Source: a phage
Sequence record: PZ179882.1
DNA: 64,000 bases
Direction: 5' to 3' (one strand)
Part shown: piece by piece, positions 13,432 through 16,227 of the stretch
Numbering within the stretch: position 1 is the first letter of the stretch
Layout: the number at the start of each line of letters is the position of its first letter
Made by a program: the position numbers and the translations under genes
Notes under the pieces: generated by a model
The model's database searches: none
What the model saw: the letters and a program-made list of their open reading frames with translations, nothing else
Told to the model about the DNA's origin: nothing

Positions 13432-13447
13432 AGGGGCCGAAGCCCCT
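13432..13447 (-). terminator. Hairpin terminator downstream of hoc
   Basis: AGGGGCC-GAAG-CCCCT stem-loop; U-rich tail on the minus-strand transcript. Confidence 0.45.
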
Positions 13448-13451
13448 GAGA

Positions 13452-14870
13452 TTATGGATAGGTATAGATGATACCAGTTTCTAAAGCAGTTTTATGAATG
13501 ATGTATCCATTACGCGATTCTTGAACATCAACTTCTGGATAGTCTTTCATCATCTTCTGAAGAGTGTAACGATGCAGGTAGTATTTACTATCTGGATCTT
13601 CAGTTTTCCAATCTTTACCTTCTTCGGTCATTTTTTGGATTTCATCCATAACCCACCAACCGCACCAGATATAAGCTGAAGTACGATGTGGAAGAGGATG
13701 AACATAAGGCAATTCACCTTCTGGTTCCGGAGCAACTTTATCAGTCACTTGAACTTGACCTGTGGCTTTAACTGTTTTACTATCATAGTCAGTTGCTGTA
13801 ACGACAGCAGTAACTTCAATAGTTTGACTTCCAATAGATGAGGTATCAACAGTATATACGTTAGTTGACCCTTCTACAGGAGAAGAATCTTTCTTCCATG
13901 AGTAAGTAATTTGTGCTGCTTCAGGTGCGCCAGTAACATTAGCAGTAAATGTAGCCGAAGCATCTTGCTGAACATTAATAGAAGGAGGAGTCAATGTAAC
14001 CTGTGGATTCATTGTCTTCTTATTAACCGTTAATGATACTTCATTAGAAGTAACTGTTTTTGCGTCGTAATCCGTTGCTGTTACTTGGGCTATACATTTA
14101 ATTTTTTTAACTCCAGCCACAGTTGGAGTATAGTTAAATGTAGAGTTAGTTTCTCCACCAACTTGTGAATCATCTACATACCACTGATACGTAGCAGACG
14201 CTCCATCAGGTTGAGAAGCTAATGCAGCAGTAAATTGAACCGGGTTTCCAATTACTCCAGCAGCAGGACTAGCAGGAGTTACTGCCAAGGTAGTTGTCTG
14301 CGTCTTTTTATTAACCGTTAATGATACTTCATTAGAAGTAACTTCCTTTGCATCATAATCTGTCGCGGTTACTTGAGCTACACACTTAATTGTTTTAACT
14401 CCGCTTGTGGAAGGAGTGTAATTGAATGTAGCAGAAGTTGCTTCGCTCACAGGAGAACCGTCAACGTACCATTGATACGTAGCAGATGCACCTGGTGGCT
14501 GTGAAGCTAAGGCAGCGGTAAATTCAATTGGAGTTCCAATCACTCCAGCATCAGGGCTACCAGGAGTTACAGCTAAGGTAGTTGTCTGTGTCTTATTTTG
14601 AACTGTGATAGTTGTACTAATTTCAGCTGTTTCAGCATCAGTATCTGGAACTGTGTTTGTTGCAACTACTTTAATAGTCTTTTGACCGGCAGGTCCTTTT
14701 AGTACATAACTAAAAGTTGCTTCAGCTCCATCTTGTGGAACATCATCTACAGTCCAAGCATAGGTAATAGTTCCACCTCCAGTTTCACCACTGGGTGTAG
14801 CAGTAAACTGCTGAGTCTGATCTATAACTCCAGTAGGTGTTTTAGGAGTTATATCAACTGTAAAAGCCAT
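13452..14870 (-). CDS. hoc: Highly immunogenic outer capsid protein Hoc, 472 aa with an extra tandem Ig-like domain
   Basis: C-terminal capsid-binding region (YVHPLPHRTSAYIWCGWW...) matches T4 Hoc as recalled; two roughly 88%-identical 96-aa Ig-like repeats. Confidence 0.9.
   Translation of the reverse strand: MAFTVDITPKTPTGVIDQTQQFTATPSGETGGGTITYAWTVDDVPQDGAEATFSYVLKGPAGQKTIKVVATNTVPDTDAETAEISTTITVQNKTQTTTLAVTPGSPDAGVIGTPIEFTAALASQPPGASATYQWYVDGSPVSEATSATFNYTPSTSGVKTIKCVAQVTATDYDAKEVTSNEVSLTVNKKTQTTTLAVTPASPAAGVIGNPVQFTAALASQPDGASATYQWYVDDSQVGGETNSTFNYTPTVAGVKKIKCIAQVTATDYDAKTVTSNEVSLTVNKKTMNPQVTLTPPSINVQQDASATFTANVTGAPEAAQITYSWKKDSSPVEGSTNVYTVDTSSIGSQTIEVTAVVTATDYDSKTVKATGQVQVTDKVAPEPEGELPYVHPLPHRTSAYIWCGWWVMDEIQKMTEEGKDWKTEDPDSKYYLHRYTLQKMMKDYPEVDVQESRNGYIIHKTALETGIIYTYP
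14019..14594 (-). repeat. Tandem in-frame 288-bp duplication (two copies) inside hoc encoding an Ig-like domain
   Basis: DNA segment TATTAACCGTTAATGATACTTCATTAGAAGTAAC recurs at 14021 and 14309 (offset 288 nt); protein repeat TQTTTLAVTP...SLTVNKK occurs twice. Confidence 0.85.
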
Positions 14871-14879
14871 AAGTTATCC

Positions 14880-15560
14880 TTATTTTAATGTTACGAAAGA
14901 AGAATTGCGTGTTTCACGAATTAGAACTGATCCGTCACGATTAATGTAGTAAATTAAGCTAAATAAAGTTTGGTGTGCCGACGCGTGTTCAAAACTAGTT
15001 GGGTGAGATTTCCAATCCGGAGTTTCAGCGATCCATTGATAAATCCACCAAGGAACCGTGCAAAATCCTGGATTTTTTCCAATCAGCTGAAGATTCGGAC
15101 TAAAGTTTTCCGGAAGAGTAAATACAGACGGCTTTTCAGATTCAATAATCTCAGCTACAGCCTGTTCGAATTTTTCTTCAACAAAAGGAGTATCTTCAAT
15201 CAAAACATTGGTATTTTCAGGAATTTTATCCGTTTCTACTACTTCAATTTTAATGTCAGATTTAACCGGAGAATCAATCAGAAGTGCTGCTTCTGGATTG
15301 ACTTCTTCATCGTCATATTTTAACCCCTCTGCAGCATCAGCAGCATTGATTAAGTCTTTAATAGATAACCCATCAGTCTCTGGCATAGGTTCACTAGCGA
15401 GCTTCTGGAGGGCTTCTTCAATATCAATAACGATATTATCAAAAGATTTATTCTTTTTGACCTTTATACCAAACTGTTCAGCATATTCAGCTAATTTAGC
15501 CTTAGCTTCTTTATTATCATCAAGAGCCTTCAGCTCTGCAATATAATCTTTATCTATCAT
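14880..15560 (-). CDS. inh: Putative prohead protease inhibitor Inh
   Basis: 226-aa ORF directly upstream of hoc; T4 inh position. Confidence 0.7.
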   Translation of the reverse strand: MIDKDYIAELKALDDNKEAKAKLAEYAEQFGIKVKKNKSFDNIVIDIEEALQKLASEPMPETDGLSIKDLINAADAAEGLKYDDEEVNPEAALLIDSPVKSDIKIEVVETDKIPENTNVLIEDTPFVEEKFEQAVAEIIESEKPSVFTLPENFSPNLQLIGKNPGFCTVPWWIYQWIAETPDWKSHPTSFEHASAHQTLFSLIYYINRDGSVLIRETRNSSFVTLK

Positions 15561-15609: not shown

Positions 15610-16227
15610 ATGTACCACTTTGTATATGAAACAACAAATCTAATAAATGGTAAAAAGTATATAGGAAAACACTCTACTGATGACTTGAATGATGGCTACC
15701 TTGGTTCCGGTAAGGCAATTCAGCAGGCTATAAAGAAATATGGTGAAAAGAATTTCTCTAGAACAATACTAAAAGAGTTTAAAACTTCCGAAGAAGCGTA
15801 CATGTATGAAGAAGAAATTATAACTCCTGAACTAATAAAAAGCAAAAATTATTATAATATGAAACCTGGTGGAATTGGTGGAATTGTTATGACTGCAGAG
15901 GTTATAGCAAAGATGAAAGAATCTTCCGCTAAGAGATTTGAAAACTCACCGGGCACGGTATTAGGTACAACTTGTTACACTAATGGAACTAAAAATATTT
16001 TTATTAAACCTGGAGAACTTGTTCCAGAAGGATTTGTAAAAGGGATGGTTCATCTTAATAGAAAGTCCAGAAAAGGATGTAAAGTCAAACCGACTACCAC
16101 AGGAACTTTTTGGGTCAATAATGGAGCAATAAATAAATTAATACAACCAGACGGTATTATTCCTGACGGATTTATTAAAGGTCGTCTCATGAAAAGAGAC
16201 TCTAAAGGCAAATTTAGTAAGGCATAA
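15610..16227 (+). CDS. GIY-YIG homing endonuclease (Seg family, T4 segD/segE-like locus between inh and uvsW)
   Basis: 205-aa ORF; GIY-YIG core FVYETTNLINGKKYIGKHS; basic C-terminal DNA-binding region. Confidence 0.85.
   Translation: MYHFVYETTNLINGKKYIGKHSTDDLNDGYLGSGKAIQQAIKKYGEKNFSRTILKEFKTSEEAYMYEEEIITPELIKSKNYYNMKPGGIGGIVMTAEVIAKMKESSAKRFENSPGTVLGTTCYTNGTKNIFIKPGELVPEGFVKGMVHLNRKSRKGCKVKPTTTGTFWVNNGAINKLIQPDGIIPDGFIKGRLMKRDSKGKFSKA

Follow-up and report, generated by a model that had tools for sequence, protein, structure and literature searches.

A four-Ig Hoc with two diverged tandem domain 2 units is a common inherited allele class of T4-like phages

The hoc gene in the window, a 64,000-nt stretch of phage DNA (PZ179882.1), encodes a Hoc with four Ig-like domains, one more than T4 Hoc. 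The additional domain is part of an array of two tandem 288-nt units of the T4 domain 2 (D2) type. This four-Ig Hoc is a common inherited allele class that has been deposited hundreds of times, and comparison of unit sequences indicates that the split between the two units predates the divergence of the hoc alleles compared here. We consider it very probable that the window hoc represents an inherited, widespread longer-fibre class of alleles in which domain number changes by homologous recombination.

Hoc forms a fibre of ~180 Å composed of a C-terminal capsid-binding domain and Ig-like domains, of which homologues carry 1 to 10 (PMC10385173). On the mature capsid, every gp23 hexamer carries one copy at its centre, and Hoc is not needed for growth (PMC10385173). 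The window ORF encodes 472 aa and T4 Hoc was confirmed at 376 aa, both as originally predicted. Searches with phmmer matched the window protein to the T4 Hoc chains (5vf3_Z, 8t1x and 8t9r; E = 5e-220), and the gene matched PHROG 1149, 'Hoc-like head decoration' (E = 7e-140), as well as the Hoc-like PHROG 21694. The gene order rnlB, 24.2-like, 24.3-like, hoc, inh, segE is that of T4 (NC_000866, 108.6–112.7 kb), and the T4 arrangement 24.3-hoc-inh-segE-uvsW was found at the window locus. The protein has the characteristics of a Hoc, namely a C-terminal domain corresponding to residues ~281–376 of T4 Hoc, an N-terminal string of Ig-like domains and a gene positioned between 24.3 and inh. A terminator is annotated after hoc in phages NBG2 and ATK47 at the same site as the hairpin in the window (Table 1). 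The 20 kb flanking hoc are 95–99% identical to 517 phage records (97.4% being the best among the matches listed), and by this sequence relationship the source phage is a Tequatrovirus, a T4-like coliphage. The window hoc is a normal, intact gene, for which the fitting annotation is Hoc with four Ig-like domains.

Table 1. Domains of the window Hoc and adjacent features
Feature	Position	Strand	Residues	Observations
hoc, highly immunogenic outer capsid protein (head decoration fibre)	13452..14870	-	472 aa + stop	ORF
Ig-like domain 1	14592..14870	-	1-93	Aligns with T4 Hoc 1-92; AlphaFold2 beta domain, pLDDT ~90
D2-type unit 1, 'first-unit' type	14304..14591	-	94-189	Without counterpart in T4; Pfam PKD/BiPBP_C/Ig_2 matches
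D2-type unit 2, 'later-unit' type	14016..14303	-	190-285	Counterpart of T4 domain 2; aligns with T4 93-188
Ig-like domain 3	13728..14015	-	286-381	Pfam Ig_3 and I-set, aa 289-374
C-terminal capsid-binding domain	13455..13727	-	382-472	Near-identical to T4 Hoc 286-376; binding role from PMC10385173
inh, inhibitor of prohead protease	14880..15560	-		Upstream of hoc; PHROG 1051, E = 8e-102
Terminator-like GC hairpin and T-run	13432..13447	-		Directly past the hoc stop; consensus scan

T4 Hoc (PDB 5vf3, 8t1x and 8t9r; Fokine et al. 2023, PMC10385173) shares the gene and the locus with the window, and the two C-terminal domains are 96% identical at the nucleotide level. T4 Hoc residues 1–92 align with window residues 1–92 and T4 residues 93–376 with window residues 189–472 (577 bits), which leaves aa 94–189, the first unit, as the extra block. 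The window protein thus differs from T4 Hoc by one more 96-aa D2-type unit between domain 1 and the T4-type D2, and the alignment confirms the extra Ig-like domain that had been predicted. The window Ig domains are 10–19% diverged from those of T4 in nucleotide sequence; unit 2 is 89.9% identical to T4 D2 and 99.0% identical to unit 2 of phage OES_C-2. Domain 3 is 100% identical to that of OES_C-2, and the whole gene is 96.5% identical to OES_C-2 hoc. Domain 1 is 39–42% identical to the D2-type units. The nucleotide sequence of the C-terminal domain is 96–99% identical throughout the panel of phages compared, and 97–98% identical in the Mosigvirus phages RB69 and F26, where the rest of the gene is unmatched.

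The Pfam PKD domain (PF00801) scored 42.4 bits in the window Hoc, with a cutoff of 23.5, and matched two stretches, the best at aa 197–253 in unit 2. The best stretches for PKD_3, BiPBP_C and Ig_2 lie at aa 127–177 in unit 1. PKD, Ig_3, I-set and PKD_3 exceed their cutoffs, and PKD/Ig domains above the Pfam cutoff are present in both units. AlphaFold2 predicted four confident beta-sandwich-like domains over residues 1–380, mostly with pLDDT >90, and the top Foldseek matches were strings of four Ig domains, Dscam1 Ig1–4, ICAM-5 D1–D4 and Sidekick Ig1–4 (probability 1.0). The RB49 Hoc crystal structure was not retrieved by phmmer against PDB at E < 0.01, and evidence for the fold comes from the AlphaFold2 model and Foldseek. 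AlphaFold2 confidence was low in the C-terminal domain (pLDDT <50 at residues 386–405 and 446–472), and a capsid-binding role for this domain therefore rests on its near-identity to T4.

The two D2-type units form an ungapped direct repeat spaced exactly 288 nt start to start, in agreement with the period and the two consecutive 96-aa segments of the original prediction. Tandem Repeats Finder placed 2.0 copies of a 288-nt period at 14014–14594 (score 724); the predicted span, 14019–14594, is this array displaced by a single codon. At an offset of 288 nt the identity is 0.78, whereas 355 other in-frame offsets give 0.31 ± 0.03 (z = 16.5), and the repeat is far above chance. Segment identity had been put at about 88%, which proved too high: the units share 77 of 96 residues (80%) and 224 of 288 nucleotides (78%). 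They begin with TQTTTLAVTP and end with SNEVSLTVNKK, both ends being conserved at the protein level, and the protein has two copies of the motif EVSLTVN, at aa 181 and aa 277. The units differ at 11% of first, 14% of second and 42% of third codon positions; of the codon differences, 32 are synonymous and 19 non-synonymous. The corresponding dS is ~0.94, dN 0.127 and dN/dS ~0.13, and the central third of the units is saturated (pS 0.75).

Unit number was compared among relatives from the spans of their matches in two samples of 60 rows, drawn systematically from ~680 GenBank phage records; of 679 records with a match, 598 span 80% or more of hoc. The database is biased towards E. coli phage isolates, and the resulting frequencies describe samples, not a full census. 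Four-Ig genes (1419–1425 nt) accounted for ~21/54 and ~20/54 in the two samples, or ~38%, and include those of PP01, AR1, HP3 and RB27. Three-Ig genes (1131 nt), to which T4 belongs, made up 29/54. Forms of ~850 nt occurred 2–3 times per sample and longer forms twice per sample. The number of D2-type units per gene among close relatives is 1 (T4), 2, 3 (568 aa) or 4 (664 aa), and a 283-aa form has two Ig domains and lacks domain 3. Genomes closest to the window over 20 kb (96.6–97.4%) are divided, with a four-Ig hoc in KFS-EC3 and KMB39 and a three-Ig hoc in pSe_SNUABM_01, ACG-C40 and ESh30.

A neighbour-joining tree was built to examine how the units are related. It holds 51 units, drawn from the hoc genes of the window, PNJ-9, EP01 and 25 panel members (28 genes in total); the frameshifted hoc records of T6 (MH550421) and ACG-C40 were left out of the unit analysis. 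The tree has two clades, one of first units and one of later units, and units cluster by position rather than by genome. Window unit 1 joins the first unit of every one of the 17 arrays, together with the sole D2 of ATK47 and of IMG/VR locus L004, and single-unit genes occur in both clades, interleaved with array units. The nearest relative of window unit 1 is unit 1 of 4E10 (93.4%). Within the 17 multi-unit hoc genes of other phages, units are 74–84% identical in DNA, and in thirty 472-aa Hocs (29 database proteins and the window) units 1 and 2 are 56–85% identical in protein. The maximum unit identity among the sampled arrays is thus 84% in DNA and 85% in protein. Orthologous units have dS values of 0.03–0.57, similar to those of domains 1 and 3, and the other hoc domains of the window differ from T4 with a dS of 0.17–0.34.

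The exact in-frame 288-nt period and the conserved unit ends are what a recent tandem duplication of domain 2 in this lineage, slightly diverged since, would leave, and such an event had been proposed. However, the copies are far from nearly identical, least of all at synonymous sites, and the observed identity, on which a recent origin had been argued, itself speaks against one, with 42% third-position differences and 80% protein identity. Nor are the window units closest to each other. Each is more similar to the unit at the same position in other phages than to its neighbour, and relatives share the array. Clustering by position, together with a dS of 0.94 against 0.03–0.57 between orthologous units, refutes a recent duplication. 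Retaining it would require a mutation rate in this segment orders of magnitude higher than elsewhere, whereas orthologous units evolve like domains 1 and 3, and we regard this origin as highly improbable. An assembly artefact, in which a single domain 2 was expanded or two co-infecting alleles were chimerically joined, could be imagined because 288-nt repeats approach short-read length and because both unit types circulate as single units, which a mixed lysate might in principle bring together. Copies that differ at 22% of nucleotides are easily resolved by assemblers, however, and the reading frame is intact. Unit 2, domain 3 and the C-terminus are 98–100% identical to the complete genome of OES_C-2, which shares the architecture. 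The same unit order, first-type before later-type, and the same 1419-nt length recur in hundreds of records produced independently by many laboratories on many platforms, which excludes an artefact in practice.

Alternatively, the array could have arisen by unequal homologous recombination between co-infecting phages with first-type and later-type single-unit alleles, in which case its units were diverged from the outset. Single-unit genes of pure first type (ATK47 and IMG/VR L004) and pure later type (RB3 and IMG/VR L002) do exist, conserved sequence at the unit junctions could support crossovers, recombination is pervasive in hoc, and unit number varies between genomes that are ~97% identical over 20 kb. 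Against this origin, the first-type unit comes first in all 17 arrays examined, and arrays of three and four units hold further distinct later-type lineages, a pattern more simply explained by a single old expansion, or a few, with later losses. The single units of EO1, Lv5cm and VIPECOOM02 resemble deletion hybrids, with a first-type 5' part and a later-type 3' part, according to a noisy painting in 48-nt windows that the diagnostic sites do not support. We judge the joining of single-unit alleles to be an unlikely, though not negligible, origin. With regard to polarity, the data are compatible with an old duplication and recurrent losses, and also with diverged alleles having been joined more than once.

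The inherited, recombining allele class that we favour would operate as follows. Since their split, each unit has evolved under purifying selection in a lineage specific to its position, 'first' or 'later'. The variation from one to four D2-type units, and the absence of domain 3 from some forms, would most likely result when phages in a mixed infection recombine, homologously or unequally, within the 288-nt repeats; the same recombination would swap short patches among alleles and among units. Judging from its sequence, the C-terminal domain should, like that of T4 Hoc, attach to the middle of every gp23 hexamer, and the Ig-like domains should project outward from the capsid as a fibre. The extra 96-aa domain should add ~40–45 Å to the T4-type fibre. 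It would also provide a second D2 surface, including the S-L-T triad; in PNJ-9, the D2 triad S183/L184/T185 is needed for binding of the mucin MUC2 (PMC11853027). That a longer fibre could alter adhesion or immunogenicity is a reasonable suggestion. The literature and databases searched contained no experiment or structure for a four-Ig Tequatrovirus Hoc.

Exchange of sequence is evident within the gene. Over nt 301–360 of the hoc coding sequence, the window has 0 mismatches to HP3 and to IMG/VR locus L001 and 14–16 to the otherwise closest phages. The window allele is therefore a new mosaic, with an HP3-like patch in the 5' part of unit 1 and a remainder like OES_C-2 and 4E10; its best protein match is 96%. 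Between the unit classes there are 34 shared polymorphisms and 6 fixed differences, and the shared ones are mostly at third positions (24/34), where some may be parallel mutations at such divergence. The four-gamete test fails for 56% of site pairs, and a PHI-like permutation gave p < 0.001. The alignments mark hoc as a short-patch mosaic gene. Close relatives thus differ in unit number and also show exchange between units and alleles, and recombination would be the mechanism behind the changes in unit number. Painting in 48-nt windows hinted at mosaic single-unit genes, T4 D2 included, but this signal is noisy, and hybrid single units as products of deletion were not borne out by the 5 near-fixed diagnostic sites between unit types, all of which are central.

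Position-specific lineages combined with mosaicism below the domain level suggest selection on the Hoc surface. More tentatively, the D2 units may form a recombination-driven variable cassette array, in which lineages are distinct only in a ~90-nt core (nt 102–189 of the unit), flanks are freely exchanged and unit number flips repeatedly between 1 and 4 in near-identical genomes. Diversifying selection by mucosal glycans or antibodies is possible in such an array, and the neighbouring segE homing endonuclease could promote the exchange. We regard this as possible but less than likely; if true, hoc would be more than a dispensable decoration gene, serving a lytic phage as a locus of surface variation at the population level.

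Ig-like domains on phages are reportedly covered by Fraser et al. 2006. The 472-aa Hocs in GenBank, annotated as Hoc or PKD domain protein (OES_C-2, 4E10, BF15, PP01, AR1, HP3, RB27, KFS-EC3 and others), have the architecture and length of the window protein and a whole-gene nucleotide identity of 92–96.5%; their units are orthologous by position and the differences are only allelic. Hoc of PNJ-9 and EP01 has 283 aa and no domain 3 (PMC11853027), Hoc of UGKSEcP1, EC101 and YUEEL01 has 568 aa and three D2 units, and slur03 Hoc has 664 aa and four. All of these length variants share the principle seen in the window, a conserved C-terminal anchor bearing tandem Ig-like domains of ~96 aa in varying number, and Hoc of Serratia phage Muldoon has 10 Ig domains (PMC10385173). 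Variation in Hoc domain number in general is already published (PMC10385173, PMC11853027). The literature searched, where the gene name is easily confused with 'post hoc' and 'ad hoc', gave no specific description of D2-unit copy-number polymorphism in Tequatrovirus. The BACON repeats of crAssphage are likewise reported to be tandem accessory surface domains whose copy number varies between related phages (PMC6949934); in these and other Ig-like virion arrays, the domain families and carrier proteins differ from Hoc.

For the window itself, a four-Ig Hoc is of little consequence. Hoc serves as a T4 display and vaccine platform and mediates adherence of phages to mucus, and natural Tequatroviruses carry Hocs with 2, 3, 4, 5 and 6 Ig domains, the three-Ig form of T4 making up only about half. 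This variety is relevant to the choice of therapeutic phages, mucus retention, antibody cross-reactivity and the design of longer display fibres.

A scan of IMG/VR identified only four close Tequatrovirus loci, too few for a census, and the comparison of unit number therefore drew on GenBank phage records. Two further loci, L005 and L006, belong to another genus of Tevenvirinae and encode Hocs of 471–472 aa. In these proteins a second domain of the D3 type supplies the fourth Ig domain, which indicates that the four-Ig state was gained independently there.

The window protein is Hoc by every testable criterion. It matches the T4 Hoc chains 5vf3, 8t1x and 8t9r with E = 5e-220, PHROGs assigns it to Hoc-like head decoration, and its gene neighbors (rnlB, two small conserved ORFs, inh and a GIY-YIG homing endonuclease) follow the T4 order rnlB-24.2-24.3-hoc-inh-segE-uvsW. 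Across the 20 kb around hoc, 517 phage records are 95–99% identical (97.4% for the best among the matches listed), and nearly all phage genomes retrieved for the hoc comparison are classified as Tequatrovirus; on sequence grounds, these findings place the window in this genus. The endonuclease, of 205 aa, resembles T4 segE in size and in its position between inh and uvsW; ~740 nt separate it from the start codon of hoc. Past the hoc stop codon, at a distance of 5 nt, lies a GC-rich hairpin (AGGGGCTTCGGCCCCT) with a T-run behind it, and terminators are annotated at the matching position in NBG2 and ATK47.

The hoc ORF and the T4 chain lengths confirm the predicted 472 aa, compared to 376 aa in T4. 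T4 Hoc residues 1–92 pair with window residues 1–92 and T4 93–376 with 189–472, so the block lacking a T4 counterpart is the first of two units resembling D2 (T4 domain numbering). The Pfam PKD profile scored 42.4 bits (cutoff 23.5) and matched a stretch of each unit; Ig_3/I-set matches fall in domain 3. The AlphaFold2 model, built on an alignment of 32 homologues, shows four all-beta domains with pLDDT mostly >90 across residues 1–380, nearly alike strand patterns in the two units and low confidence in the C-terminal domain. Foldseek against the PDB returned the four-Ig strings of Dscam1 Ig1–4, ICAM-5 D1–D4 and Sidekick Ig1–4 with probability 1.0; TM-scores were low, as expected where the inter-domain angles of strings differ. 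The T4 alignment, Pfam, AlphaFold2 and Foldseek thus bear out that this Hoc has one Ig-like domain more than T4's, making four.

Coordinates of hoc features and neighboring elements in the window
Feature	Position	Strand	Product or residues
hoc ORF	13452–14870	-	472 aa
Tandem array	14014–14594		
D2-type unit 1	14304–14591	-	aa 94–189
D2-type unit 2	14016–14303	-	aa 190–285
60-nt patch at start of unit 1 (CDS nt 301–360)	14511–14570		
Anchor segment matching RB69	13452–13727		
Hairpin	13432–13447	-	
GIY-YIG endonuclease	15610–16227	+	205 aa

Tandem Repeats Finder detected a single array (2.0 copies, period 288, 78% matches, score 724), and an ungapped repeat finder gave a start-to-start spacing of exactly 288, in agreement with the period originally proposed. 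The interval proposed, 14019–14594, captured the same array but was offset by one codon from the unit bounds. Self-identity of hoc was 0.78 at offset 288 versus 0.31 ± 0.03 at 355 other in-frame offsets (z = 16.5), indicating that the repeat is not due to chance. The units are less alike than the ~88% originally estimated, sharing 77/96 residues (80%) and 224/288 nucleotides (78%; 77.8%). Differences at codon positions 1, 2 and 3 amount to 11%, 14% and 42%; of the codon changes, 32 are synonymous and 19 non-synonymous.

The original reading of a recent duplication is refuted. Nei–Gojobori estimates between the two units are dS 0.94 and dN 0.127 (ratio about 0.13), and in the central third synonymous sites have reached saturation (pS 0.75). 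By the same method, dS between the window and T4 is 0.24 for D1, 0.34 for D3 and 0.17 for the C-terminus, and for orthologous units in ten other 472-aa genes it is 0.03–0.57. We split hoc DNA from 25 GenBank and 4 IMG/VR phages into domains, and a neighbor-joining tree of the 51 D2-type units resolved two deep clades, one holding all first units of arrays (genes with more than one such unit) and the other all second, third and fourth units. The nearest relatives of window unit 1 are first units of 4E10 (93.4%), BF15 and IMG/VR locus L001; those of unit 2 are second units of OES_C-2 (99.0%) and 4E10. Units of one gene share 74–84% DNA identity across 17 arrays and 56–85% protein identity in thirty proteins of 472 aa, of which 29 come from the protein database and one is the window's, and no young duplication was seen among them. 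This clustering by position, together with the within-gene divergence, indicates that the two units separated before the sampled hoc alleles diverged.

An assembly artefact is very unlikely as the source of the array, given 22% divergence between copies and many independent records. Already diverged alleles could instead have been joined into a two-unit array. We consider this less likely, as the unit order is invariant, which favors as the presumed origin a duplication that took place long ago within one genome and was followed by losses. The likeliest cause of changes in unit number is unequal homologous recombination within the 288-nt repeats, which would occur during mixed infection.

Megablast with the window hoc retrieved 679 phage records, 598 of them covering ≥80% of the gene. 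Architecture was read from match span in two 60-row samples drawn systematically from the ranked matches, one queried with the window hoc and the other with T4 hoc; about 54 rows of each held a Tequatrovirus-type hoc.

Architecture of Tequatrovirus-type hoc in the two samples
Match span	Ig domains	Window query	T4 query
1419–1425 nt	four	about 21	about 20
1131–1137 nt	three (including T4, RB3, RB32, RB68)	29	29
about 850 nt	two	2	3
longer	five or more	2	2

Four-Ig genes occur, among others, in PP01, AR1, wV7, HP3, RB27 and KFS-EC3. Protein database and tblastn searches found at least 15 records that encode a 568–570-aa Hoc carrying three D2-type units (e.g. UGKSEcP1/2, EC101, YUEEL01 and ESh16), and the 664-aa Hoc of slur03/08/14 has four such units, hence six Ig domains (slur03 LN881728 60366–62360). 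The last unit of these three- and four-unit arrays (L042–L047) forms a separate sub-lineage (ANPAAG...VDGSLVDGETTTTF...ENYNEKE). The 283-aa Hoc of PNJ-9 and EP01 comprises D1, one D2-type unit and the C-terminal domain without D3, in agreement with its published description (PMC11853027). Among genomes 96.6–97.4% identical to the window over 20 kb, KFS-EC3 and KMB39 have four Ig domains and pSe_SNUABM_01, ACG-C40 and ESh30 three. Single-unit genes fall in both clades of the tree, interleaved with array units; those of ATK47 and L004 are first-type, and those of T4, RB3, L002 and L003 later-type. Together, these observations indicate that D2-type unit number has, as judged from the alleles compared, changed repeatedly.

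The gene is also mosaic. hoc is 92–96.5% identical to its best matches compared to about 97% for its flanks, and its nearest relative varies along its length: OES_C-2 is 100% identical in D3, 99% in unit 2 and only 90.6% in unit 1. The 60-nt patch has 0 mismatches to HP3 and L001, and 14–16 to OES_C-2, 4E10, BF15 and KFS-EC3, the closest alleles elsewhere in hoc; it is the footprint of short-patch recombination. D1 nt 121–240 is the same as in KFS-EC3; the remaining phages in the comparison differ there by several to a dozen positions per 60 nt. Between 17 first and 23 later units only 6 differences are strictly fixed, all within unit nt 102–189. At 34 sites both groups share one and the same pair of segregating alleles, although 24 of these are third positions, where parallel changes may explain some. 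A PHI-like permutation gave p < 0.001 for D2-type units, and 56% of informative site pairs failed the four-gamete test. Both lineages may also have contributed to T4 D2, which in noisy 48-nt windows reads as first-type at its ends (unit nt 1–50 and 220–288) and later-type in its core, with diagnostic sites only in the center. Co-conversion around a Seg cleavage site as a contributor to this mosaicism is only an idea.

In megablast, RB69 and F26 (Mosigvirus) match only nt 1144/1147–1419 of hoc at 97–98%, corresponding to RB69 NC_004928 112612–112884. This breakpoint is the boundary between D3 and the C-terminal domain, which suggests that whole Ig strings have also been exchanged between genera on a conserved anchor. 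Two IMG/VR loci of a different Tevenvirinae genus (UViG 2974735671 and 2974546015; positions 1501–2910) encode 471–472-aa Hocs with four Ig domains at ~50% identity. Their extra domain is a second D3-type, and was therefore gained independently and convergently.

T4 Hoc is a ~180 Å fibre bound to the capsid by its C-terminal domain with three Ig-like domains outward, a plan shared by about 650 homologues, whose Ig domains number from 1 to 10 (PMC10385173). With its near-identical anchor, the window Hoc would sit on gp23 hexamers as T4's does, and the extra unit would lengthen the fibre by about one domain, ~40–45 Å (180 Å / 4). Purifying selection (dN/dS about 0.13) and the intact frame indicate that both units are likely expressed and folded. 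Through Hoc, phages adhere to mucus and to fucosylated glycans (PMC9271167), and MUC2 binding in PNJ-9 needs D2 residues S183/L184/T185 (PMC11853027). The EVSLTVN motif occurs twice in the window Hoc, at aa 181 and 277, and the extra unit would provide a second D2 surface.

The duplication was thus correctly seen and mis-dated, and the window carries an ordinary allele. The four-Ig architecture has already been deposited hundreds of times, annotated variously as Hoc, 'PKD domain protein' or 'capsid and scaffold protein', and Hoc domain-number variation is published in general terms and, specifically, for the two-Ig variant. Our literature search found no description of the D2-unit copy-number series within Tequatrovirus, a descriptive gap and not a new kind of object. 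The interest is modest and lies at the population level, in position-specific unit lineages, 1–4 copies and sub-domain mosaicism beside a homing endonuclease.

In several records hoc is interrupted. The gene is frameshifted in a T6 record (MH550421; stop after aa 161), annotated as two CDS in ACG-C40 (JN986846) and split into three in a T2 record (PV648364 139788–140904); either sequencing errors or decay of this dispensable gene into a pseudogene may be responsible. Others are oddly labeled (PV654520.1, NC_041919.1, KT184309.1 and PQ100635.1). PV654520.1 is named a 'Pseudomonas phage' yet has a Tequatrovirus hoc at 89.5% identity, HP3 RefSeq is given the taxonomy Rosemountvirus, and ATK47 and PNJ-9 are labeled Mosigvirus, but their hoc Ig domains are Tequatrovirus-type, unlike those of RB69.
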